37,036 nucleotides of DNA from Planctomyces sp. (GTDB lineage: Bacteria > Planctomycetota > Planctomycetia > Planctomycetales > Planctomycetaceae), in contig SYLK01000433.1 in the NCBI GenBank assembly GCA_005809115.1, forward strand, positions 1 to 37,036, written 5' to 3'. The notes under the pieces were generated by a model. The model was given only the letters and a program-made list of their open reading frames with translations. It did not search any database and was not told the DNA's origin. Position 1 is the stretch's first letter, and every line of letters begins with the position of its first letter. Below are positions 1,847-35,324 of this stretch, one piece after another. The position numbers were made by a program, and so were the translations under genes.

Positions 1847-3502
1847 GTGATGCAGACGGCGGAGATCGTGTCGAAAGTCAGGGGATTTGTGGGCATGCGC
1901 GTGGCCATTCTGTTGCTGCTGGCTGCACACCTGCCCTATGTCGCGGTATACTTCATCAGTCTCTGGCAGCAGCGCACTCATTACCAGTTTTTCCCATTCG
2001 CCGTTGCTGCGTTTATCTGGCTGTTCTCCAGCAGGCGCCGGAAGTCAGGCGAGCAATGGTCAGCATTACCAGTTGCATTGGTTCTGGGCGACCTGTCCTG
2101 CGTTCTGTTGGGCGTCGTGATTCGTTCTCCCTGGCTGTTTGCCTTCGGTATGTTCCTCAGCGTACTCGCCTGGTGCGTCGCATCGCACGAAGAAGGTTAT
2201 CATCGACGTCTGACTTATCTGGCGCTGCTGCCGCTGCTGACAATCAGGCTGCCAGCCAACGGTGACAACCAGATCATCGCCTGGCTGCAGACGGTGACTA
2301 CGGCCGTAGCCAGCAGAATGCTGCAGCGTTTCGGATTCCTGCACTTCCGCGAGGGCAACGTACTGGAATTCCCAGGGAAGCGCTTTCTGGTGGAAGAAGC
2401 CTGCAGCGGAGTACAGTCGCTCTTCACGATTCTGTTCATCGGTGCTCTGGTCATCTGCTGGAATCGCCGGACTCTGACCCATGGAATCATTCTGCTGGCC
2501 AGTGGCGTGGTCTTTGCCGGTGTGATGAATGTCTCGCGCGTTGTCGCGATTGCCGTAGCCTGGGACCAGTATGCGGTGGATCTTTCGACCGGTTATCAGC
2601 ATGACGTGCTGGGATATGTGTGCCTCGGTATTGCGGCCCTGTTGCTGTTGAGTGCCGATTCATTCCTGACCTTTATCACCGATCCCGTACCTGATCTGAA
2701 AAGTGCGGGGACTCTCGGCAATTTCCGAAATCCTCTGATTGCAGCCTGGAACTACCTGTTTTCTGTCTCGCGAGAATCGATCCGCACCGGTCCGGCTCAG
2801 GATTCCTCGAAGCACACTCCTGGTCGGCAGTCAGTGTGGAACATCGGAGCCGGATTGATCTGTGTTACGCTGCTGCTGTTCCAGACGTACGTGCTTCGCG
2901 GTGAAACTCCGAACCGACCACCAGCAGAAATATCCCGCGGGGATACCTTTGATGCGGAGACGCTGCCAGCGACAGTGGCGGGAATGTCCAGATCCCATTA
3001 TCTGGTTGAGGAAGGTTCTTCAGATACGACGACTGCACGCTTCTCAAACGTCTGGCACTACACTTCTGACAACCTCGAGGCGCGCGTCTCGTGTGACCAT
3101 CCGTACTTTGACTGGCAGCTGATTCAGCATTCTTATGTCAGGGAAGGCTGGGAAATTACGGAGTCGTCTGAGCAGGACAGCCCGGACGGGTGGAGTGCCA
3201 CGATGATCCGTATGCGGAACATCGCCGAGAATCGCCACGGTTTTCTGCTGTTCAGCATGTTTGACAGAACTGGAAAAACTCTCGAGCCGGAGAAATCCGC
3301 AGGTGCGGGATCAAGAGTATTTGATCGGCTGTTCCGATCCGGCCCCGATCGATCGGGCAGCATAATGTCTTATCTGGCTCAGACATTTGTCGTGACGGGC
3401 AGCCGAATTCCCGATAACGATGTTCAGAAACTTATCGAACTGCATTTTCAGACACGGAGCCAGCTGCGACTGGCAGCGACGGCGTCGGCAGCCAGTAATT
3501 AG
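1847..3502 (+). CDS. Exosortase family protein fused to a C-terminal EpsI-like domain
   Basis: The polytopic N-terminal half (about aa 1-280) carries the exosortase signature: Cys186 in VEEACSG (TGC at 2402-2404), Arg231 in MNVSRV and His252 in YQHDVLG. An extra TM segment (aa 331-348) is followed by a ~200-aa soluble domain that is paralogous to the free-standing ORF at 33624-34394. The start is GTG at 1847 or ATG at 1850. Confidence 0.85.
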   Translation: MMQTAEIVSKVRGFVGMRVAILLLLAAHLPYVAVYFISLWQQRTHYQFFPFAVAAFIWLFSSRRRKSGEQWSALPVALVLGDLSCVLLGVVIRSPWLFAFGMFLSVLAWCVASHEEGYHRRLTYLALLPLLTIRLPANGDNQIIAWLQTVTTAVASRMLQRFGFLHFREGNVLEFPGKRFLVEEACSGVQSLFTILFIGALVICWNRRTLTHGIILLASGVVFAGVMNVSRVVAIAVAWDQYAVDLSTGYQHDVLGYVCLGIAALLLLSADSFLTFITDPVPDLKSAGTLGNFRNPLIAAWNYLFSVSRESIRTGPAQDSSKHTPGRQSVWNIGAGLICVTLLLFQTYVLRGETPNRPPAEISRGDTFDAETLPATVAGMSRSHYLVEEGSSDTTTARFSNVWHYTSDNLEARVSCDHPYFDWQLIQHSYVREGWEITESSEQDSPDGWSATMIRMRNIAENRHGFLLFSMFDRTGKTLEPEKSAGAGSRVFDRLFRSGPDRSGSIMSYLAQTFVVTGSRIPDNDVQKLIELHFQTRSQLRLAATASAASN

Positions 3503-3610: not shown

Positions 3611-5806
3611 ATGTGCTCATTGAAGTCCCCACAGAACATGGTTCGGGAAACCGGTCAGAGTCTGAATGTACTGCCAGCGTCAGGCGATTACTCGCACGGC
3701 GGGCGCCCCCGACGTGATTCGGTCCTCCCGGCGCTGCTGAATCCCGTGAATCATTTTCGCTGGCTGGCGGGATTTGGGCAGTCCTGGGTCCTGTCTCGCG
3801 ATTACGGGCGACTGACTTCGAGCATCCCATTCTGGATTCTCATCGTTGCGGTCGTCTTTCTGACCTGGCTGCGACATGCGCCGGATGATGAAGTCGTGGC
3901 CTCGTACCAGTCGGCCCTGGAAGCGGCCGTCAACAGCGGCGACGCGGCACGGCAGGAGGTCTATCTGAACGCACTTGTGCAGCTGCGCCCGCGTGACCCT
4001 GAGGTCCGATTTCAGCGGGCAAAGCTCCTGCTCAGTCAGGGTCGGAACGAAGGGATCGACTTCATAAGTCCACTGGTACCCGATGAGACTGACGGGTACG
4101 CGCCAGCCAGAATGTGGCTTGTCGAACAGGCCAGCCGTCCCAATCCCGTGGTTCCGTTGACAGACAGCCAGATTCAGAACCATCTGACCAGGATTCTCAG
4201 CCAGCGACAGGATGACCCTCAGGCACATCGCTGGCTCGCCCGGATTCTTCTGCGGCAATCAGATCTTAAGGGAGCTGAGACGCATCTCGAGCTTGCCGCG
4301 CGGACACTTCCCGATCTGAACGTGGAGCTGGCGAAGCTGAAGGCAGCGCTCCAGCGAGATCCTGCCGAGATCCACAGATATGCCTCGCGTGGGGCCGATG
4401 AGCTGACCGGTCGCCTGCGGACGGACCCCGACAATATGGAATGCCGCCTGGCACTTGGCGAAGCGCTGATCCTTCTGGGGCAGTTCGACGCAGCCAGAGA
4501 ATTGCTGACGGCCAGAGCGGATCTGAGCAGTGATCCGCGACTGCGGCGATCGCTGTCGGACCTCGAAATCGCATCCGCCGACCGACTTCTCGCGGATTCT
4601 CTGCTGAATCAGGATGTGTGCGGCCGGATCCTGCTGAAGGCGCTGGAACTGGACCCGTCAAACCTGACTGCGGTACAGCGCATCGCCGAACTCCATGCTG
4701 CGGGCACTCACTTCCAGCGCAGCGAGATCGAGGCGTCTCTGAATTACTGGCAGCAGCAACTGACGGAACGCCAGGATCAGGAAGGCCCAAGGCGTATCCT
4801 CAGCCAGCTGCTCGCCGTGGTTGGCGCGGCGGCGGAAGCCGCAGAAGTCCTGCGGCCTGTCGTTCTGCGGCGACCGGAACTCAGACTGTCGTTTGCCAGG
4901 CTGCTCACCGACGCCGGCGCAAAGGACGAGGCATCTGCTGTGCTGCAGCTGGTGGAACTGGAGGTCGGTCTCGAGCTGCTGCAGAATCCGGATTCTGTCA
5001 CGGCTGCAGAACAAAAGACCGAATCGCTCATGATCGGCGGTCGCCCGGCAGAAGCTCTGAAGTTCCTGCAGAAACTCACGTCACGAAATCAGGCCGGACG
5101 AATTCCCGAGGCGCCCAGTCTGAAAGCGCTGTTTGGCAGAGCCTCGATTCAGGTGTACGACTCGTTGATTCTTTCAGGTGGCGTCCCTGCGGGGGGATCG
5201 GAAAACGCCCCGCAGCCAGATGAATCAACGCTGCTGCAGCTGCTGGCCGACGCGGTGTCGTCACAGACTTCAGCCGCAGCGGGAATGGATCGACTGGCAC
5301 AACTCGCTTTGTCGCAACATCCTGCCGCGGCACGGGCTGAGGAAATGATCCGGCAGTATCGGCTGACTGAAGCGTCCGAGCAGGAGATGCTGAACCGACT
5401 TGGGACACAGGCGCTGGTCGTCGGTGACTATCAGAAGGCGCGCACCTGTCTGGAACAGGCGAATCAGCTGTCCCGTGGCGGGAATCCCATGACCCTGAAC
5501 AATCTGGCAATCGCCGTTGCACGCGGCGAATCTCGGGATCTTACTGCAGCGCTGGAACTGGCAAATCAGGCTTTGCTGCAGCTTCCCGGGCACCCGGACG
5601 TGCTGTCGACTCGCGGGGAAATCCTGCTGGAATTGGGCCGGTGGCCCGAAGCCATCCAGGATCTTGAGCAGGCGGTTTCGATGCGGCGCGACAGCCGCGA
5701 GGTTCACGAGCTGCTGCTGCGAGCTTATACCGCCACGAACGCCACAGAAAAGGTGGAAGCTCACCAGAGGGAACTCAAACGAATCTCTGAGAACAACCCC
5801 GGATGA
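3611..5806 (+). CDS. TPR-repeat protein with an N-terminal membrane anchor (possible PEP-CTERM-system PrsT-like component)
   Basis: There is a single TM segment (SSIPFWILIVAVVFLTWL), followed by about 650 aa of Ala/Leu/Arg-rich helical repeats. Recognisable TPR units include GDYQKARTCLEQANQL and GRWPEAIQDLEQAVSM. It lies immediately downstream of the exosortase. The start is uncertain (3611 or 3638). Confidence 0.6.
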   Translation: MCSLKSPQNMVRETGQSLNVLPASGDYSHGGRPRRDSVLPALLNPVNHFRWLAGFGQSWVLSRDYGRLTSSIPFWILIVAVVFLTWLRHAPDDEVVASYQSALEAAVNSGDAARQEVYLNALVQLRPRDPEVRFQRAKLLLSQGRNEGIDFISPLVPDETDGYAPARMWLVEQASRPNPVVPLTDSQIQNHLTRILSQRQDDPQAHRWLARILLRQSDLKGAETHLELAARTLPDLNVELAKLKAALQRDPAEIHRYASRGADELTGRLRTDPDNMECRLALGEALILLGQFDAARELLTARADLSSDPRLRRSLSDLEIASADRLLADSLLNQDVCGRILLKALELDPSNLTAVQRIAELHAAGTHFQRSEIEASLNYWQQQLTERQDQEGPRRILSQLLAVVGAAAEAAEVLRPVVLRRPELRLSFARLLTDAGAKDEASAVLQLVELEVGLELLQNPDSVTAAEQKTESLMIGGRPAEALKFLQKLTSRNQAGRIPEAPSLKALFGRASIQVYDSLILSGGVPAGGSENAPQPDESTLLQLLADAVSSQTSAAAGMDRLAQLALSQHPAAARAEEMIRQYRLTEASEQEMLNRLGTQALVVGDYQKARTCLEQANQLSRGGNPMTLNNLAIAVARGESRDLTAALELANQALLQLPGHPDVLSTRGEILLELGRWPEAIQDLEQAVSMRRDSREVHELLLRAYTATNATEKVEAHQRELKRISENNPG

Positions 5807-15361: not shown

Positions 15362-15554
15362 TCATGGTCGAATATCGGATGCGAGAAGACCAGTTCAACG
15401 CTGGTCGCTCGACCTTGTTGAACAGGATCTGTGCTGCGGCAAATGACGCAGCCAGGGCCACGAACAGCACGCCCCCAACGGGACCATTCTTCACTGATGG
15501 CTTCCTGAACGGCTGTTGTCGACGGAATACAGCGATGCAGCTCAGGAAACTGCA

Positions 15555-19635: not shown

Positions 19636-19829
19636 CCTGAGTCATTCGTGCCGGTTCAACGGACGCATTGACTGCCCGGGCTCCGGACACAGCAGGATCC
19701 TGTGTCTGTCTCCTGAAGTCAGCAATCGCGATCAGCCTGATCCCGGACGGCTGCCTGTCGCGTGGAAGTCGGCATCCTGTCCCTGCCTGACGGTCCCGGA
19801 TTGGCATCGGCGACGCGCTTCGATTCCTG

Positions 19830-22233: not shown

Positions 22234-22507
22234 CTGTAAGACTGTTTCTCACGGTCTGGCAGAACAGCCGGGATCCGTCGTGTGCGTTCCCAGGTTCGGA
22301 GGCATACCGGAGGTCATGCTTCAGATTCTGTTGCGTCGGGCTGCCAGACAGCAGGCGAAAGCTGTCGGGGTGCGGCCCCCATCCCTGACAACCGATGGGC
22401 GTCACGGCGTCAGTCAGTGTTTTTCTGGCTGCAGGATCCTGGCGCGTCGGCCTCCATGCGCGTCCGCTCTGGTGCGGAGGCACCGCTGGCTGGCCAGTGC
22501 CCGCTGA

Positions 22508-25924: not shown

Positions 25925-26899
25925 TCAGGGGTTCTGACGCAAAGACTGCAGTCGGAACGGCTTACCCACAGAGCGATCGTGCAGCCGCTTCACTTCTTCA
26001 TCACCGGACTGCAGGGCCTGAAGAAAGTCGTCGATCGCCCGCCGCATGGCCTTCTGGTTTGCCAGATTAAAGCACCACCAGTGCCACCGCCTGCCGATGC
26101 TCAGCCCCGCCGGCCGCAGCAGCGAACGCACCAGCGAGAGTCTCGCGCGAAGTGTCTGCCTCGGAATCTCCGGTACCACACCAAACAGCCAGTTCCGCAG
26201 ACACAGCATCGTGACGACCCGTCTGTATGTGACCGCTTCGTCCTCCAGATGATAATGGAATACGCGGGCGGACGGATCATAGACCAGTGTATGGCCCGCC
26301 TTCAGCGCATCAATCGCCCACAGGGGATCTTCACCATAAGGAATCTCCCGAAACGGGATCTGATCCCGCAGTACCGAAGTGCGGTACATGGCAATCACGT
26401 CATCCCATGACGCCGCGTCCCTTTTCTGCCCGGGCGGCAGCGCTTCAAACTGCTCCGGCGTCTCAAACGAAAATCGCTTCGTGCGGGGCTCCGACCGAGG
26501 CCGAAACCACTCCGCAGGATTCTTGTCCGGCTCGTGGGGCACCACCTGGAGCCCGCAGACCCCGGCAACCCTGTCGCTGTCGAAGCCAGCCACCAGTCGT
26601 GCCAGCACGGATCGATCACACGCCCTGGCATCGCCCACTGTCATCAGCGTCAGCTCGCCCGTCACATGCCTCATTGCCCGATTACGAGTTGTCCCATGAT
26701 TGAACTCCGAACCAGGAATCTCGACCAGCCGGACCTTGTCATAGCCTCTGACAATCTCCAGCGTCCCGTCCGTGGAACCGGAGTCGATGACCACGATCTC
26801 TTCCACAGCGACTGACTGATTCAGCCAGCTGTCCAGGCACTCTGTGATGCCCTTCGCTTCGTTGCGGACGGGAATCACAATGGAAACGGTCGGATGCAT
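25925..26899 (-). CDS. Glycosyltransferase family 2
   Basis: VSIVIPVRNEAKGITECLDSWLNQSVAVEEIVVIDSGSTDGT. Confidence 0.85.
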   Translation of the reverse strand: MHPTVSIVIPVRNEAKGITECLDSWLNQSVAVEEIVVIDSGSTDGTLEIVRGYDKVRLVEIPGSEFNHGTTRNRAMRHVTGELTLMTVGDARACDRSVLARLVAGFDSDRVAGVCGLQVVPHEPDKNPAEWFRPRSEPRTKRFSFETPEQFEALPPGQKRDAASWDDVIAMYRTSVLRDQIPFREIPYGEDPLWAIDALKAGHTLVYDPSARVFHYHLEDEAVTYRRVVTMLCLRNWLFGVVPEIPRQTLRARLSLVRSLLRPAGLSIGRRWHWWCFNLANQKAMRRAIDDFLQALQSGDEEVKRLHDRSVGKPFRLQSLRQNP

Positions 26900-26946
26900 A
26901 ACGGGCAGCGGGCAATAAGCAGTGGGCAGTGAATCGGACCGGGATG

Positions 26947-27744
26947 TCAGATTCCGGATTCCGGGTTGTGGCCGGCGTGGAATTCCCTGAGCGCGGCGTT
27001 GAGTTCATCCGATGTGCCGATGTCAATGTAACGACCATCCGGCACGGGAAATCCTCGCACGTTCATCCCGTCGGCAAGAGCGGCGTTGAACACATCGCCC
27101 AGCACAGTTTCCCGGCCGCCAGCGTCATGCTGTGAAAGAAACGCATCCAGCAGGTTCGTGAATCGCACGGACCAGCAGCACGTACCCCACATATACTCCA
27201 GGGACGAGTTCTGCGGCTTGTCAACTGTGCTGACGACTCGACTGTCAGCATCGATCTCGACCATGCCAAACTTCTGCGGGCGATCGGTCGCAAAGAGTCC
27301 CAGGGACAGATCGGCACCAGACTGAAAGTGCTGCTCGACCAGTGTCTTCAGCGCGGTTACAGGCCGAATAATCGTGTCCGGCATGCCAAAGACAACGGTT
27401 GCGTCTCCAATCCAGGGACGTGCCAGATTTATCGCCGAAGGCATTCCGTCGAGTCGCTCCTGATAGAGGTAAGCAATCTCAAGGCCGAAACGACTGCCGT
27501 CGCCGTAATACTCGACCACGTCCTGTTTGCCCTGACCGACAATCAGCAGGATTCGCCGGACTCCTGCCTGTTTCATGTTTTCCAGAATGTACTGACTCAC
27601 CACCTTTGGCCGTTTCTCGGCCCTGCCCTTCACGATGTAGTCCTGAAAACCAATCGGAAACAACTCCTTGGCGCAGGGAAAAGGCGCCAGGCGCGTCCCT
27701 TTACCAGCAGCCGGAATAATTCCCACCGTGTCTGCATTCTTCAT
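26947..27744 (-). CDS. Sugar-1-phosphate nucleotidyltransferase (NTP-transferase family)
   Basis: N-terminal GIIPAAGKGTRLAPFPCAKELFPIG, the G-x-G-T-R-x-x-P...K-E-L motif of sugar nucleotidylyltransferases. An ATGA overlap (27741-27744) couples it to the upstream BNR protein gene. The sugar specificity is unknown. Confidence 0.8.
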   Translation of the reverse strand: MKNADTVGIIPAAGKGTRLAPFPCAKELFPIGFQDYIVKGRAEKRPKVVSQYILENMKQAGVRRILLIVGQGKQDVVEYYGDGSRFGLEIAYLYQERLDGMPSAINLARPWIGDATVVFGMPDTIIRPVTALKTLVEQHFQSGADLSLGLFATDRPQKFGMVEIDADSRVVSTVDKPQNSSLEYMWGTCCWSVRFTNLLDAFLSQHDAGGRETVLGDVFNAALADGMNVRGFPVPDGRYIDIGTSDELNAALREFHAGHNPESGI

Positions 27745-29042
27745 GGAGACAAATGCTCCGGCAAAAAGGACGCTCGCAGAAATGTATCAAACCGCTGATA
27801 ACCGGGATAAGCGCGGACACCCACGCAGATGACCTCTTTCCCGCCAGTGTTTCTCACTGCCATCGGACGCACCAGGTCATGTGCTGTGCGGCTCGAAAGT
27901 CGCGGTTCCGCGGCTTTCTGCCATTGCTGATCAATGAACGAAAACTCAGCAATCTCATACCGGCCTTCCGCGTTCTTCAGGGAGACGAGCACCACAGGCG
28001 GACTGACTGAAACGATACAGGCTCCGGCCGGGTAGCAGACAAGACCCTGACGGGCGATTTCCTGTGTGGTCCAGGTGTTGGTGGTTGAGTCCCGGTGCGA
28101 CCAGCAGACGACGGAGTCGGCGGAATCATAGTCAATCCAGATCGCGGCGAGCTGACCAGCGGGATCACGCTGCACATCCCACACGCGGGTTTCACGATCG
28201 CCCTCGGTCCGCATGACGGCAGTCAGTCCGTGAAAAAGAACCGGAAGTGTGAGGCGGCTTCCTGTTCCATCCTGCCAGGTAACGCCGCTGTCCGAACTCC
28301 GGATATGGTAGACGTCGCGAACGCGGCCCTCAACCGCCACCCCAAACAGCAGATCGACATCCGCCGTCGTTTCGTCTCCGACTGACAGTGAATAGATCCA
28401 GTCTCCGCTGATTCCTTCCCCGGGCGCAGCGTCCACCAGAACCGTTTCATCGGAAAATGAACGGCCGTGATCCTGTGACATTCGAAAACAGTACGGACGC
28501 GCACCGTCGGAATCCGTCCGGCGATAGAACAGGAGCAGCCGATCGTTTGTCGTGCAGAGGACAGGATAGGTGCTTTCTCCGTCGCAGACAACGACGGGAT
28601 CTAACCATGACGTAATGTCTCCGCTGGTCGCCGTTATGCGACTGAACATCGGGGAGTTATGCAGGCTGTAGAACACTCGCACTCGCCCCGCGTCCGGTCC
28701 GCGTGCGGGAAGATATAAAGCGGGCGGGCCATGATCGTCCAGATAATGATACTGGGCTACGACAGCAGCGAATGCCTCCCGCTCAGAAATCTGTCCAACG
28801 ACAACCTCACGACGCGATGTCATCCAGCCGGCGTAGATATTCGCCCCCGAACGGACTGCCGGCGGCGTGTTGTACCACAGGAGATTGCCTCGACCCCACA
28901 GCTCGTCGAATGAGGGTGCCGTGGTGCGCAACACGTATCCCACGGGAACCAGGATCGCAGCTGCGATGAGAACACCAGCGGTAATTCGTTTCGTATTCAT
29001 GTTCAGGAGTTCTGACACGCCCTGGCGAATCCGGGACAGCAC
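27741..29042 (-). CDS. Membrane-anchored Asp-box (BNR) repeat protein, sialidase-like beta-propeller candidate
   Basis: Two Asp-boxes are present: SQDHGRSF (nt 28455-28478) and the perfect S-x-D-x-G-x-T-W match SSDSGVTW (nt 28275-28298). An N-terminal TM helix reads ITAGVLIAAAILVPVGYVL. The likely start is the ATG at 29000 (MNTKRI). Confidence 0.55.
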   Translation of the reverse strand: MLSRIRQGVSELLNMNTKRITAGVLIAAAILVPVGYVLRTTAPSFDELWGRGNLLWYNTPPAVRSGANIYAGWMTSRREVVVGQISEREAFAAVVAQYHYLDDHGPPALYLPARGPDAGRVRVFYSLHNSPMFSRITATSGDITSWLDPVVVCDGESTYPVLCTTNDRLLLFYRRTDSDGARPYCFRMSQDHGRSFSDETVLVDAAPGEGISGDWIYSLSVGDETTADVDLLFGVAVEGRVRDVYHIRSSDSGVTWQDGTGSRLTLPVLFHGLTAVMRTEGDRETRVWDVQRDPAGQLAAIWIDYDSADSVVCWSHRDSTTNTWTTQEIARQGLVCYPAGACIVSVSPPVVLVSLKNAEGRYEIAEFSFIDQQWQKAAEPRLSSRTAHDLVRPMAVRNTGGKEVICVGVRAYPGYQRFDTFLRASFLPEHLSP

Positions 29043-29152
29043 CTCCTGACAGCGTTGTCGGCGGAGTCCTGCGAACCAGTCCCAACGCTGTCCTCAACTC
29101 CAGGGCCAACTCCTCTGCTGCGACTGGCTCAGTTCTGAGGGCCGTTCGCCTG

Positions 29153-30346
29153 TCAGGGTGCACTCCGGAGTCGAAGCAGCCAGTCGGCTGCCGTGTCGGC
29201 AATCCACGCGAATGAAGTACACGTGCCGAGGCTGCGGGCAGCCTGATGTGGCTGATAGACGAGCAGCGGCACGTATTCCCGCGTATGATCGGTTCCCGGG
29301 ACCGTCGGGTCGCACCCGTGATCACCGGTAATCACGAGCAAGTCATCGTCTGTCAGGTGATTCAGCATCTCGGGAATTGCCCGATCAATTTCCTCCAGCG
29401 CACGACCGTATCCCACCGGATCATTGCGATGACCGTAGAGAGCGTCTGTATCAACAAGGTTTGTAAAGATCAACTGGCATTCGGATTCATCCGTGGTCGT
29501 CCGCGATTCTCGCAGTGACGTCAGGTCCAGCTGATTTCGAATCGCCTGCAGAGTGAGCTGCAGCCCTTCAGCATTTCCATTGGTATGTACGGAATGCGTG
29601 ATTCCCGATCCCACGAAGATGTCGACAATCTTCCCGATCCCCAGCACCAGTCCACCCCTGTCTGCGATTCGATTCAGAACGGTGGGTTTCGGAGGTGTCA
29701 CGGCCAGATCACGCCGAGCTCCGGAAAGTCGCTTCAGGCCCATCTCTGTGCGACAATACGGCCTGGCGATGACGCGGCTGACGTTGTAATCGTCGGTCAG
29801 CAGCCCTCGAGCGATCTGGCACCAGCCGTACAGCGTTTCGAGCGGGACCACATCCGTGTTGCACGCGACCTGAAAGACACTGTCCGCACTGGTATAGACG
29901 ATGGGAAATCCCGTCGCGACGTGCCGCGGATCGAAGCGTTCGATGATCTCGGTCCCCGACGCCGGACAATTCCCGAGAATTCCCCCGCAGTCAGTTTCGG
30001 CGACAAATCGGTCCAGCAGCTCGGCTGGAAAGCCGTGCGGATACACCTGAAAGGGCTGATCCAGCACCAGGCCCGCAATTTCCCAGTGCCCTGTCGTCGT
30101 ATCCTTGCCTTTCGAGACTTCCATCATCCGTCCATAGCTGGCAAGTGGCTGAGCGACCGGAGGTACTCCCTGAACCTCGGTGATATTTCCCAGGCCGAGT
30201 GCTCCCAGATGCGGCAGACGCAGTCCCTGGCTGGCCCTTGCGACGTTACCCAGCGTGTTGCATTCCGGAATATCTCCGTAGTCCGCGGCATCCGGCAGCG
30301 CCCCGACGCCCAGGGCGTCAATCACGATGATGATCGCTCGTCGCAT
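29153..30346 (-). CDS. deoB: Phosphopentomutase
   Basis: It is collinear with E. coli DeoB from the first residues. Shared motifs include MRRAIIIVIDALGVGA, SKGKDTTTGHWEIAG, IVYTSADSVFQVAC, RVIARP and ITGDHGCDPT...GTDHTREYVPLLVY. The start at ATG 30346 fits the family N-terminus, while the listed start at 30478 adds 44 atypical residues. Confidence 0.9.
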   Translation of the reverse strand: MRRAIIIVIDALGVGALPDAADYGDIPECNTLGNVARASQGLRLPHLGALGLGNITEVQGVPPVAQPLASYGRMMEVSKGKDTTTGHWEIAGLVLDQPFQVYPHGFPAELLDRFVAETDCGGILGNCPASGTEIIERFDPRHVATGFPIVYTSADSVFQVACNTDVVPLETLYGWCQIARGLLTDDYNVSRVIARPYCRTEMGLKRLSGARRDLAVTPPKPTVLNRIADRGGLVLGIGKIVDIFVGSGITHSVHTNGNAEGLQLTLQAIRNQLDLTSLRESRTTTDESECQLIFTNLVDTDALYGHRNDPVGYGRALEEIDRAIPEMLNHLTDDDLLVITGDHGCDPTVPGTDHTREYVPLLVYQPHQAARSLGTCTSFAWIADTAADWLLRLRSAP

Positions 30347-30485
30347 CTTCAGATGACCCCCATTCGCGCCCTGGCAGCGCCTGTGACTGTCGATACCGCT
30401 GTCCTGCCGGTCCCCGGTCCGATTCGCATGACGGCCGATTCGCTTGACGGCCGGGAAAAGGGCACCTTCCGGCTGCAACCTGCGG

Positions 30486-31499
30486 CTACTGCTGCAGAGG
30501 CGCAGATGTCGGCAACTTCCACAGCAGCGAGATGGCCTGAAATATCTTCAGCTGCGATTCCACCCAGCTTCGCACAAAGGGGAATCGGATCAATCGTGAT
30601 CGACACGCCAGAACCGCTCTGCTCAGCCGCCTGAATTCTAAACCATTCAGCACGCCTGCCTCATGACTCCACTTCAACAGGTCGTTTGCCAGGTCGAAAT
30701 GTCGACCGCGCGCAGCACCGTAAACCGTTTCGCCCACCATATACCGCGCCAGACGCTTCTGACCCGATTTTCCGCTGGCTTCAAGGAGCTGAACGGCATC
30801 ACGGATAACCCGACAGCGGCTTTCCACCTTCGGGCGTGCATAAAATCCTGAGCGACTGAGACTGGAATGTTCTCGGTAGTACAGATCCGCGGGAAGATCA
30901 AAGCAGACTTTCGCACAGTAATCCTGAATCCAGGCCCGCAGAAACAGATCGATATCCTGCCAGATCGCCAGATGTTCTGCCCACATGCCGATTCTCAGGA
31001 AAGACGATTTCCTCCAGATGCAGCCGGTCCCCTGACAAATTGCGTCCTGATGAAACTGACGACTCAGCAGATCACGATCCGTGGCCACATTCCACCATCG
31101 GGCAGCGTCACCTGAGACACTGTGAAAGATCTCGCACGGAAAGACTGCCAGGTCGAGTTCTGGATGCTGCTGCATCACCTGCACGCGCTGTGACAGGCAG
31201 TGTGGAGCGAGCAGATCGTCGGTATCGAGAAAGATCAGATACTGGCCGGAACTGTGCTCGACTCCGATGTTGCGACAGGTACAGGCGCCTTTCGGTTCTC
31301 GATCACGCTCCAGCAAAGTCACGCGTGACTCAGCCGCTATGACATCGCGCATCTGCCGGAGACACGCGGCATCACTCCCGTCGTCAACGATGATCTGCTC
31401 CCAGTCCGGGTAGTCCTGCGCGCGGAGCGAAGCGAGTGTCTCCGGATACAGATCGCCACGGTTAAAACTCGGTGTGATGATCGAAATGACGGCAGCCAC
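30486..31499 (-). CDS. Glycosyltransferase family 2
   Basis: ISIITPSFNRGDLYPETLASLRAQDYPDWEQIIVDDGSD and the FLDTDD motif. Confidence 0.85.
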   Translation of the reverse strand: MAAVISIITPSFNRGDLYPETLASLRAQDYPDWEQIIVDDGSDAACLRQMRDVIAAESRVTLLERDREPKGACTCRNIGVEHSSGQYLIFLDTDDLLAPHCLSQRVQVMQQHPELDLAVFPCEIFHSVSGDAARWWNVATDRDLLSRQFHQDAICQGTGCIWRKSSFLRIGMWAEHLAIWQDIDLFLRAWIQDYCAKVCFDLPADLYYREHSSLSRSGFYARPKVESRCRVIRDAVQLLEASGKSGQKRLARYMVGETVYGAARGRHFDLANDLLKWSHEAGVLNGLEFRRLSRAVLACRSRLIRFPFVRSWVESQLKIFQAISLLWKLPTSAPLQQ

Positions 31500-31502
31500 G
31501 TG

Positions 31503-32186
31503 TCAGACCCAGAGCTTTCGCGCGCGGTAGGCTGAGAAGTCTGCAGCCCTCAGATAGCCGACGTACTCCTGGCTCAGGCAACGACGCTGACACTTTTCAG
31601 GATCCAGTCTTCGGATCAGGCGGGCCGGGTTTCCCGCCACGACGCAGTTTCCGTCCGGAAACGACTTCGTGACAATACTTCCGGCACCGACCACCGTAAA
31701 ATCACCCAGCCGCACGCCCGGCAAAATGACCGCATTCATACCGATCCAGCAATAGTCACCAATCACAACACTCTGCGTCTTATCGTGCTGGTCCGGGTCT
31801 TCAGGCAGGTGATTCGCACTGACGATTCCCACATTCTGTGCGATCCGCGTATAGTCACCGATGAAGACCTGACCGAGTCCCTGAATATAGCACCCTGGTT
31901 CATAGCCGGGACACGTATCGATCCCCACCACGATATTCTGTGGCTGGTTGATCTTGCTCGTAAAATGTACAGGCCAGTAGGCCTTTCGATTGATTCCCAG
32001 AACTTTCTGAATCAGAAATCCGGACAATGTCCTGGGCACTGGTGATTCACGCGTATTCTTCACGAAATGAAGGGGCGGCAGCCGGATGAGGGCCTCATAG
32101 AGACATCGCGCGCTGTTCCGGAACAGGAACCGGGCTGCCCGCCAGGGCAGCGTATGCAGCGGCCAGACCCGCTCAGAGAGTCGCAT
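31503..32186 (-). CDS. Left-handed beta-helix O-acetyltransferase (paralog B)
   Basis: WIGMNAVILPGVRLGDFTVVGAGSIVTKSFPDGNCVVAGNPARL. The protein aligns with paralog A along its whole length. The start is uncertain, with candidate Met codons at 32186, 32207, 32213 and 32261, all of which overlap the wzt 3' end. Confidence 0.75.
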   Translation of the reverse strand: MRLSERVWPLHTLPWRAARFLFRNSARCLYEALIRLPPLHFVKNTRESPVPRTLSGFLIQKVLGINRKAYWPVHFTSKINQPQNIVVGIDTCPGYEPGCYIQGLGQVFIGDYTRIAQNVGIVSANHLPEDPDQHDKTQSVVIGDYCWIGMNAVILPGVRLGDFTVVGAGSIVTKSFPDGNCVVAGNPARLIRRLDPEKCQRRCLSQEYVGYLRAADFSAYRARKLWV

Positions 32187-33525
32187 ATCGGGTAATACTG
32201 CTGTCATTGTCATGCATCGGCGAGTAATCAATCTGCCAGTCAAATCGAGGATGGATGGCACCGGCAGGACGGGCTGAATGTGTCAGGCCCAGATGATTCA
32301 CAGTCAGCTCATCCACGTAAAACGCAACGTCATGGCCTGCCACAAGGGAGGCTGTCAGCGGAATGTCGATGTCCACACTGACCACATACTTGCCAATGTT
32401 CAGGAAGTGTGCCGGAATAGTGACAGAACTCACGTAGCTTCCCGGTGCTCGCATCCGGTCCGCCGCCTGATGGTTGAAGTCACTTGTCGAGAGTACCAGA
32501 CTGCCGTCCTGCGCCGACAGATTCACGGAAACCCTGAGACTTCGGATCGAATTCACTATCGTGTAGCGAACTTCCACGCGCAGTGAGTCAGACGTCGACA
32601 GTCGCGTATCACAACGGCCCAGCGCGTCCACAACTGATACAGCATTCAGCCGCACGCCGCCCTTTGACGGTTCCTGCCCGGCCGGAAACGTCAGAATTCG
32701 TTCAGCCCCGCTGCCGGCCGCGAGATACCTGTCAATGATGTCAGAGGTGACCCCGGCGGAATCCAGAGTCCCATTGACCAGCAGGCAGCTCTGCCGACAC
32801 AGTCGGCGAATCGACGCCATGTTATGACTCACGAACAGGATCGTTCGCCCGGATTCACGACTGACGTCTTCCATCTTGCCGATGCAGCGAGTCTGAAAAT
32901 CGGCGTCCCCGACGGCCAGGACTTCATCGACGATCAGGATCTCCGGTTCCAGGTGAGCTGCCACCGCAAATGCCAGCCGCACATACATTCCGGATGAATA
33001 TCGCTTCACCGGTGTGTCAATGTATTTCGCACAGCCGGAAAACTCCACGATCTCATCAAATCGCCGACGAATATCGGACCGAGTCATCCCCAGAATCGCA
33101 CCGTTCAGATAGATATTCTCGCGCCCGGTCAATTCGGGGTGAAATCCTGTTCCGACTTCCAGCAGGCTCGCCATTCGCCCGCGAACACGGATTCGCCCGG
33201 TTGTCGGCGCGGTGACTCGAGACAGCAGTTTCAGCAAAGTCGATTTGCCGGAACCATTCCGGCCTATGATTCCCAGGATCTGACCCTGCTCCACCTGCAG
33301 ATTGATGTCCTTCAGCGCCCAGACGTAGTCAGACACCGCGGAGCGAGAGGCGGGAGGCAAAGAAGCGACGGTACGATCATTCACCTGCCACACGCGGGCA
33401 AATGGATCGTCCTTCCCCCGGAATCTGGCCCACCAGCGGTTGAGATCGTGCGCAATAGTGCCCGTGCCCACCTGACCCAGGCGGTACATCTTGGAGACAT
33501 TTTCAATGGAGATCGCGGTGCTCAT
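32173..33525 (-). CDS. wzt: Polysaccharide ABC exporter ATP-binding protein with a C-terminal glycan-binding-type extension
   Basis: Walker A GRNGSGKST, signature YSSGMYVRLAFAVA and Walker B ILIVDEVLAVGD. A further ~190 aa of beta-rich sequence (RLNAVSVVD...VEVRYTI...VSVNL...) occupies the position of the Wzt C-terminal domain. Confidence 0.9.
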   Translation of the reverse strand: MSTAISIENVSKMYRLGQVGTGTIAHDLNRWWARFRGKDDPFARVWQVNDRTVASLPPASRSAVSDYVWALKDINLQVEQGQILGIIGRNGSGKSTLLKLLSRVTAPTTGRIRVRGRMASLLEVGTGFHPELTGRENIYLNGAILGMTRSDIRRRFDEIVEFSGCAKYIDTPVKRYSSGMYVRLAFAVAAHLEPEILIVDEVLAVGDADFQTRCIGKMEDVSRESGRTILFVSHNMASIRRLCRQSCLLVNGTLDSAGVTSDIIDRYLAAGSGAERILTFPAGQEPSKGGVRLNAVSVVDALGRCDTRLSTSDSLRVEVRYTIVNSIRSLRVSVNLSAQDGSLVLSTSDFNHQAADRMRAPGSYVSSVTIPAHFLNIGKYVVSVDIDIPLTASLVAGHDVAFYVDELTVNHLGLTHSARPAGAIHPRFDWQIDYSPMHDNDSSITRYATL

Positions 33526-34406: not shown

Positions 34407-35324
34407 TCAGACATGATCCATAAATGTGCGTTCGACGCGATTGAAGATCACGATTCCCGCCGCCAGTACGACAAGTGTCACAAGGATGCTGTAGCCAAGA
34501 TGCAGTGGACTGTACTCGCCGGCGCCCAGAAATCCATATCGAAAGGTCTCCACAATCGGCGTCAGCGGGTTGGCGTTCACAATCAGGCGATATTTTTCGG
34601 GCAATGCCGAAGCCGGATAGATCACCGGCGTGGCATACATTGCCAGCTGAACGGCAAACTGCAGCAGAAAACGCAGATCACGATACTTGGTCGTGAGAGA
34701 CGAAATGATCATGCCCAGACCCAGCGACAGACCGCCCATCAGCAGCACAAGCACCGGAAACAGTGCCGCCACGGCATTCACGCGAATCCCTGTCCCTGAA
34801 AACGCATACCATCCACAGAAACACAGAAACAGTGCAAACTGAACTCCGAACCGCAGCAGATTCGACACGACAATCGACAGCGGAATGATTACGCGCGGAA
34901 AGTAGACTTTCCCGAAGATGTTCGCATTCTGAATGAACGTCTCCGACGTCTTCGTCAGACACTCGGCGAAATAGCTCCAGCACGTGATGCCGCTCAGGTA
35001 GAACAGCACCTGCGGCAGTCCGTCGGTCGGAATACTGGCGATCTGGCCAAATACGATAGTGAATACAATCGTGGTCAGGACGGGCTGAATCAGGAACCAC
35101 AGCGGACCCAGAATTGTCTGCTTGTACAGAGCCACGAAATCGCGATAAACCAGCAGCAGCAGCAGGTCCCGGTACCTCCAGATGTCCCGAACGGGAATCG
35201 AAAATAGCCCGGCCTGAGGTTCAATCTCCAGCGTCCAGTCCCCCGGATCTTCCGCGTTCAGAGCAGAATTCGATCCCTGCGCATCTGGCTCCAGTGTCTC
35301 CGGTAATTGTCTGATTGTGGACAT
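34407..35324 (-). CDS. wzm: Polysaccharide ABC exporter permease (ABC-2 type)
   Basis: DIWRYRDLLLLLVYRDFVALYKQTILGPLWFLIQPVLTTIVFTIVFG, followed by six TM segments. This is the typical Wzm/TagG/KpsM architecture. Confidence 0.85.
   Translation of the reverse strand: MSTIRQLPETLEPDAQGSNSALNAEDPGDWTLEIEPQAGLFSIPVRDIWRYRDLLLLLVYRDFVALYKQTILGPLWFLIQPVLTTIVFTIVFGQIASIPTDGLPQVLFYLSGITCWSYFAECLTKTSETFIQNANIFGKVYFPRVIIPLSIVVSNLLRFGVQFALFLCFCGWYAFSGTGIRVNAVAALFPVLVLLMGGLSLGLGMIISSLTTKYRDLRFLLQFAVQLAMYATPVIYPASALPEKYRLIVNANPLTPIVETFRYGFLGAGEYSPLHLGYSILVTLVVLAAGIVIFNRVERTFMDHV

Follow-up and report, generated by a model that had tools for sequence, protein, structure and literature searches.

A DeoB-type phosphopentomutase linked to an RmlA-fold nucleotidyltransferase in bacterial glycan clusters: a possible route to nucleotide-activated pentoses

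Why does a phosphopentomutase gene lie within an operon for an exported glycan, and could the nucleotidyltransferase coded close behind it use the product? We address this question for a contig of Planctomyces sp. (family Planctomycetaceae, phylum Planctomycetota; GenBank assembly GCA_005809115.1, contig SYLK01000433.1, positions 1 to 37,036 of the forward strand). The whole stretch of 37,036 nucleotides (hereafter the window) comes from a metagenome-assembled genome (MAG) that is 66% complete and consists of 970 contigs. One minus-strand Wzm/Wzt glycan cluster takes up most of the window. In this cluster, deoB and the gene of an RmlA-fold sugar-1-phosphate nucleotidyltransferase (hereafter NTase) lie between the genes of two soluble family-2 glycosyltransferases (GT2s), GT2A upstream of deoB and GT2B downstream of the NTase. 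We lean, with moderate confidence, towards the view that GT2A-deoB-NTase-GT2B is a horizontally mobile precursor-and-transfer cassette, in which a pentose 5-phosphate would be converted to a pentose 1-phosphate and then to a nucleoside diphosphate (NDP)-pentose that is used by the flanking GT2s.

The protein coded by deoB (29153..30346, minus strand, 397 amino acids) passes both available equivalog models for DeoB with a clear surplus, reaching 484 bits in NF003766 and 415 bits in TIGR01696, for which the cut-offs are 256 and 341, and its ATG at 30346 agrees with the point where the profile begins. The alignment with the Bacillus cereus phosphopentomutase (PDB 3M8W; E 3e-102) runs from end to end, with about half of the residues identical. 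The GKDTTTGHWE, NLVDTD..GH, DHGCDP and GTDHTRE motifs align with those of the B. cereus enzyme and are conserved among the cassette relatives described below; the catalytic Thr nucleophile and the Asp/His metal-ligand motifs are retained. The YTSADSV and RVIARP segments, which presumably contact ribose in the B. cereus structures, are the same in both proteins.

The NTase (26947..27744, minus strand, 265 amino acids) is coded by the second gene downstream of deoB. It matches PF00483 with 79 bits (gathering score 21) and contains the motif AAGKGTRL...AKELFP, i.e. a G-x-G-T-R nucleoside triphosphate (NTP) loop followed by a later conserved Lys; residues R18, K26 and K176 are invariant across the family. 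Its AlphaFold2 model (predicted local distance difference test score 84.5) has RmlA as the best fold in Foldseek (E 5e-19, TM-score 0.77, 24% identity). The original prediction, which named a textbook DeoB inside a glycan operon and, two genes downstream, an enzyme with the G-x-G-T-R...K-E-L motif, therefore stands on both points. Against the named equivalogs RmlA, GalU, GlmU, MurU, HddC and ManC, all scores are below the cut-offs (best 84 bits; rmlA_long cut-off 320). Because it falls below every NCBIfam equivalog cut-off, the NTase belongs to an unassigned family, and a feature search in a protein atlas returned only generic 'nucleotidyltransferase / glucose-1-phosphate thymidylyltransferase family' clusters. 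The family occurs in many phyla with 54–83% identity.

We then compared the surroundings of both genes across genomes. NTase loci were collected in a scan with one genome per species (80 loci), together with separately fetched encoding contigs, and both sets were searched by tblastn with the window proteins. Six loci of Planctomycetota, among them the one in the cultured species Neorhodopirellula pilleata Pla100, have the complete GT2A-DeoB-NTase-GT2B arrangement, as do Magnetococcus marinus MC-1 and one alphaproteobacterial MAG; three Verrucomicrobiota loci contain the DeoB-NTase pair. The GT2A orthologues that flank the NTase in other phyla are 40–79% identical, and the GT2B orthologues, directly after the NTase, 40–72%. 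The reciprocal comparison gave a sharp division among 80 metagenomic DeoB loci: an NTase lies within about 1.1 kb downstream in 9 of the 11 DeoBs that are at least 54% identical to that of the window (in one of these nine, GT2A is placed between DeoB and NTase), and in none of the 69 ordinary DeoBs. Given its recurrence across phyla, the pairing is far beyond chance.

The mutases of these loci also form a group of their own. In a maximum-likelihood tree, 11 NTase-linked DeoBs from four phyla are set apart by one split (support 100/100, branch length 0.65) from 24 other DeoBs, 20 of which are from Planctomycetota. This clade shares an insertion of 14–15 residues (residues 272–286 in the window protein) and five fixed substitutions (T300, N163, S190, Y197 and I320). 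In a set of 14 cassette loci, the pairwise identities of the DeoBs correlate with those of the NTases at r = 0.90, a value inflated by kinship, and this fits a putative co-transfer of the two genes as one unit. The original prediction had asked whether the deoB-NTase linkage is conserved in related glycan loci: it is kept across four phyla and comes with a dedicated DeoB clade, which supports a functional coupling of mutase and nucleotidyltransferase.

In the route that we infer, down to the direction of the mutase, the choice of sugar and nucleotide and the role of the GT2s as users of the product, (i) the cassette DeoB would shift the phosphate of a pentose 5-phosphate, in the simplest case ribose 5-phosphate from the pentose-phosphate pathway, to C1; (ii) the NTase would condense the resulting pentofuranose 1-phosphate with an NTP to an NDP-pentose; and (iii) one or both soluble GT2s would take this NDP-pentose as a Leloir donor and bring the pentose into the exported polysaccharide. 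Ribose 5-phosphate would be the default substrate of the mutase; DeoB-type mutases are known to take ribose, deoxyribose, arabinose and xylose 5-phosphates in enzyme cascades (PMC8073115).

Some of the clade-specific changes lie near the DeoB active site. A Phe-to-Thr change in NLVD[T]D stands between two conserved metal-site Asp residues, and Gly-to-Ser and Phe-to-Tyr changes flank the RVIARP segment on either side. These changes could mean a shifted pentose preference. Together with the long stem branch and the insertion, they could also be taken to indicate that the clade has changed its substrate altogether and that its enzymes act as mutases on phosphates of sugars other than pentoses (hexoses, amino sugars or modified sugars), the product being an ordinary or unusual NDP-hexose. 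However, the protein scores well over the DeoB equivalog cut-offs, its YTSADSV and RVIARP segments are those of ordinary DeoB, and phosphohexomutases are presumed to be present already in the host genomes; we regard a non-pentose substrate as distinctly unlikely.

Several observations weigh against the NDP-pentose route. Two metagenomic DeoBs (L149, 5992–7185; L151, 5992–7182) have the signature of the clade, i.e. the insertion and NLVDTD, with no NTase nearby. N. pilleata has deoA, deoC and purine nucleoside phosphorylase (PNP) genes and no DeoB other than the cassette copy, which could therefore serve catabolism too, so that a dual role is possible. The weightiest counter-evidence is that GT2A-NTase-GT2B cassettes without an adjacent DeoB are found in Gemmatimonadaceae, Lacibacter, Magnetococcales, Caulobacteraceae, a Bacteroidales MAG, an uncultured alphaproteobacterial MAG, Minwuia and Kordiimonadales. 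No DeoB was found anywhere in the genomes of Kordiimonadales IMCC3096 (a complete genome), Lacibacter and Minwuia, and a PNP_UDP_1 search of Kordiimonadales and Minwuia gave MTAP-type matches only and none of PNP type. Since such cassettes exist in genomes without DeoB, there must be a way to obtain the substrate of the NTase that does not depend on this mutase.

These DeoB-less cassettes, which are orthologous and have NTases that are 52–60% identical in Gemmatimonadaceae, Lacibacter, Minwuia, Kordiimonadales and the Bacteroidales MAG, are the chief argument for an NTase that is independent of DeoB and activates a sugar 1-phosphate from general metabolism, DeoB serving, for example, to balance the ribose 1-phosphate pool with that of ribose 5-phosphate or to feed phosphoribosyl pyrophosphate (PRPP). 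That about 54 of about 76 NTase loci contain neither DeoB nor GT2A/GT2B points in the same direction. By contrast, this explanation does not account for the reciprocal link between the DeoB clade and the NTase (9 of 11 against 0 of 69), for the monophyly of that clade over four phyla or for the joint divergence of the two genes, and no phosphoribosyltransferase-type Pfam domain, as a PRPP-using transferase would carry, was seen in the major open reading frames (ORFs) of the window. Nor are DeoB-less cassettes unusual as such, since many glycan clusters have a nucleotidyltransferase without its mutase, as known from rml and man loci. They are compatible with the NDP-pentose model because nucleoside phosphorylases are another source of ribose 1-phosphate and the mutase for the precursor is missing from many glycan loci. 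On balance, an NTase working apart from DeoB seems rather unlikely to us. The original prediction of an NDP-pentose made through DeoB and the NTase thus gains from the conserved linkage and the dedicated clade, whereas its product is one that we infer and cassettes with the NTase and no DeoB exist.

In favour of the NDP-pentose route, no further enzyme that would form a sugar phosphate, be it a kinase or a phosphohexomutase, recurs beside the NTase in the approximately 76 loci, where the neighbours are mainly GT2 and family-4 glycosyltransferase (GT4) genes. Another source of sugar 1-phosphate was also sought beside the DeoB-less cassettes, and no kinase or phosphohexomutase was found: their neighbours are GT2, GT4, epimerase, HisF, methyltransferase and export genes or unknowns. 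More distant NTases (35–58% identity; Anaerolineae, Chitinophagaceae, Bdellovibrionales, cyanobacteria and others) mostly lie beside other GT2/GT4 genes. Cyanobacterial relatives in Scytonema, Brasilonema and Tolypothrix (L067–L078, about 40% identical) are placed outside glycan clusters, behind a conserved ExbB/ExbD pair and a DUF1232 gene; with this context they may have a different role. The DeoBs of L149 and L151 adjoin a divergent UDP-GlcNAc 2-epimerase gene and an ABC1-kinase-like gene; the ORF downstream of the L151 DeoB was considered as a hidden NTase and rejected (hhalign probability 0.15%).

Is deoB simply a housekeeping gene that happens to sit in a glycan locus, where it would turn ribose 1-phosphate from nucleoside phosphorylases into ribose 5-phosphate? 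The original prediction allowed for such a trapped gene and proposed to look for another deoB in a setting of nucleoside catabolism. The search gave none, and the copy at 29153–30346 is the only one in the 66%-complete MAG; the cassette copy is likewise the sole DeoB in two other cassette-bearing planctomycete genomes. Taken alone, a single deoB per genome would favour the housekeeping explanation, as would the PNP gene on another contig of the window genome and the above case of Neorhodopirellula, which has deoA, deoC and PNP and no other DeoB. The distribution of DeoB in the lineage tells otherwise. Among 61 genomes of the family including the window MAG (47 of them with a completeness of 90% or more and a contamination of 5% or less), DeoB was found in none of the 60 others, which represent 60 genera, yet PNP occurs in most of those looked at (17 of 20 family genomes without DeoB). 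DeoB is therefore not a housekeeping enzyme in this lineage; in the phylum as a whole, it was found in 39 of 301 sampled genomes. Also, no deoA or deoC was found in the window genome at its 66% completeness, and the window itself contains none of deoA, deoC and deoD. The lineage thus runs nucleoside phosphorylases without DeoB, and the deoB of the window is an addition that came inside the glycan cluster. With the linkage across four phyla and the dedicated clade standing against it as well, a trapped housekeeping gene is very unlikely.

Planctomycetaceae UBA7805 has pyrimidine and/or purine nucleoside phosphorylase genes, and the cassette copy, its sole DeoB, might serve both glycan synthesis and catabolism. 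A complementary pattern, in which cassette DeoBs would occur only where nucleoside phosphorylases are missing, failed, as a PNP_UDP_1 member is present in 10 of the 10 genomes tested; 9 of the 10 best matches scanned are of PNP or MTAP type.

The gaps between GT2A and deoB (30347..30485, minus strand, 139 nt) and between deoB and the following gene (29043..29152, minus strand, 110 nt) have the predicted sizes of about 140 and 110 nt. The claim that no gap in the cluster is larger is wrong: gaps of 274 nt (22234–22507, between HisH and HisF), 194 nt (19636–19829) and 193 nt (15362–15554) are found elsewhere in the operon. A search of the two deoB-flanking gaps against Rfam, with E values up to 1 allowed, gave no match; likewise, 26800–30700, which includes both gaps, has no sigma-70-like promoter or terminator-like site. 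These gaps are unremarkable. A foreign composition of the cassette genes was considered and rejected: their GC content and GC at third codon positions (GC3) are those of the remaining cluster, and hence there is no sign of recent transfer.

GT2A (30486..31499, minus strand; PF00535, 88 bits) and GT2B (25925..26899, minus strand; PF00535, 75 bits) both lack transmembrane segments and have generic GT2 relatives only in the PDB. This suggests that they are cytoplasmic Leloir-type enzymes. A role as polyprenyl-phosphate sugar synthases was considered for both and is unsupported, given the missing transmembrane segments and the generic GT2 matches.

The junction between deoB and the NTase gene is a variable slot that is empty in most loci. 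It is filled by an S-adenosylmethionine-dependent methyltransferase gene in L143 (4436–5482), the closest relative of the window locus (DeoB 79% identical), by an Acyl_transf_3 O-acyltransferase gene in L222 (7669–8637) and by a membrane-anchored BNR_4 beta-propeller gene in the window (27741..29042, minus strand; PF15892, 67 bits), which overlaps the start of the NTase gene by 4 nt. The BNR_4 protein has an N-terminal hydrophobic segment at about residues 19–37, read as a membrane anchor, and weakly matches the propellers 5MUM, 5MVH and 5MUK, which we take to be members of the GH145 rhamnosidase family. Its sole close homologue in a set of 5.8 billion proteins (39% identical) is coded between wzm and wzt of the cassette cluster L222 (1953–3287), and a weaker relative (26%) is found in L150 (20–979), 5 kb upstream of the cassette. 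The presence of a homologue in another cassette cluster indicates a recurrent accessory of this cluster type and not a random insertion; the protein is perhaps a periplasmic glycan-processing enzyme.

Upstream of GT2A, the window contains, from the top of the operon in reading order and all on the minus strand, an AbiEii-like gene, wzm (34407–35324), a small EpsI-like gene, the gene of the Wzt ABC-exporter ATPase (32173..33525; ABC_tran 81 bits) with a weak Wzt_C-like tail (27 bits, below the cut-off) and a hexapeptide O-acetyltransferase gene (31503..32261; Hexapep 39 bits, WbbJ/MAT-like). This layout recurs. Of 15 related loci whose flanks are long enough, 12 have wzt one to four genes upstream of GT2A, and loci with upstream wzm/wzt are spread across phyla (L006, L010, L014, L019, L034, L035, L038–L041, L044 and L045). 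A hexapeptide acetyltransferase, WbuX-like or AsnB-like gene often stands between wzm/wzt and GT2A, and the same acetyltransferase family occupies the same position before GT2A in L009, L014, L019, L035, L041, L044 and L222. With wzt so placed in 12 of 15 loci, the cassette is a conserved head module of ABC-transporter-dependent clusters, and it may build the polymer core or a chain-end cap read by Wzt. Further down the operon after GT2B, again on the minus strand, follow a third GT2 gene, WbuX/HisH/HisF genes and a WbpB/D/E-like triad; the last part of the operon consists of six GT4 genes and the genes of an FkbM methyltransferase, a multi-transmembrane protein and a carbamoyltransferase. At the low end of the window are plus-strand genes for a PEP-CTERM protein (793–1527) and an exosortase (1847–3502), and after the latter a gene for a TPR protein (3611–5806).

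Taken more broadly, we tentatively propose, as a possibility somewhat short of an even chance, that bacteria have a Leloir NDP-pentofuranose pathway beside the PRPP routes, which would have spread horizontally over no fewer than four phyla and, where housekeeping metabolism supplies the precursor, over several more. Since wzm/wzt usually come immediately before the cassette, either the core polymer or a Wzt-read cap at the chain end may be formed by its pentose, which is possibly O-acetylated. A literature search found no paper that links deoB or a phosphopentomutase to a nucleotidyltransferase in polysaccharide loci.

If the proposal is true, (i) a new nucleotide sugar, an NDP-pentofuranose derived from a pentose-phosphate-pathway intermediate, would join the known set of donors; (ii) inverting or retaining Leloir transfer of a pentofuranose would become possible; (iii) a function would be assigned to a widespread unannotated NTase family, a distinct DeoB clade and two GT2 families; and (iv) enzymes for the chemo-enzymatic synthesis of pentofuranosides would be at hand. 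The cultured carriers N. pilleata Pla100 and M. marinus MC-1 make the idea directly testable.

How does the cassette compare with known systems? The window DeoB shares the family, fold, catalytic Thr, Mn-ligand Asp/His motifs and YTSADSV segment with the DeoBs of B. cereus (3M8W) and Escherichia coli. Unlike these, the cassette DeoB forms a distinct clade with an insertion and fixed changes, is coded in glycan clusters beside the NTase instead of with deoA/deoC/deoD as ordinary DeoB is, and is found in lineages otherwise without DeoB. The NTase has in common with RmlA the fold (TM-score about 0.75), the G-x-G-T-R loop and a conserved Lys and Asp, whereas it is only about 24% identical and has an insertion of about 13 residues after KELFPVG. 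The motifs that align to the sugar pocket of RmlA differ (PDT for GDN and IDKP for EEKP), and they do not allow the substrate to be read.

All ribofuranose incorporation in bacterial glycans described so far starts from PRPP, which, as the authors stress, limits the linkages that cytoplasmic enzymes can make (PMC11127046). These PRPP systems, i.e. cytoplasmic ribofuranose (Ribf) transferases and three-component polyprenyl-phosphoribose systems, serve the same end as that proposed here, the introduction of a pentofuranose into glycans of the O-antigen or capsule type, ABC-transporter-dependent glycans among them (PMC11127046). They need a phosphoribosyltransferase-type enzyme and a phosphatase, and no such domain was seen in any major ORF of the window; the predicted donor of the cassette is instead an NDP-sugar for Leloir GT2s. 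The Pgm/RmlA, ManB/ManC and GlmM/GlmU systems follow the same logic as the cassette, in that a mutase makes the sugar 1-phosphate and a nucleotidyltransferase activates it; their mutase is an alpha-D-phosphohexomutase, whereas the partner mutase here is a pentose mutase of the alkaline phosphatase superfamily.

The nearest functional precedent known to us is the aminoribosyl pathway of caprazamycin/A-90289-type antibiotics, with the phosphorylase LipP, the uridylyltransferase LipM and the ribosyltransferase LipN, in which, as far as a likeness at the level of the pathway description goes, a pentofuranose 1-phosphate is converted to a UDP-pentofuranose by an RmlA-like nucleotidyltransferase and then used by a glycosyltransferase. 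That pathway differs in that it is not known to involve DeoB, obtains its sugar 1-phosphate from a phosphorylase acting on 5'-amino-5'-deoxyuridine and decorates a secondary metabolite. In brief, the pathway logic proposed for the cassette is familiar, and its mutase, the inferred class of sugar and the enzyme families are without precedent.

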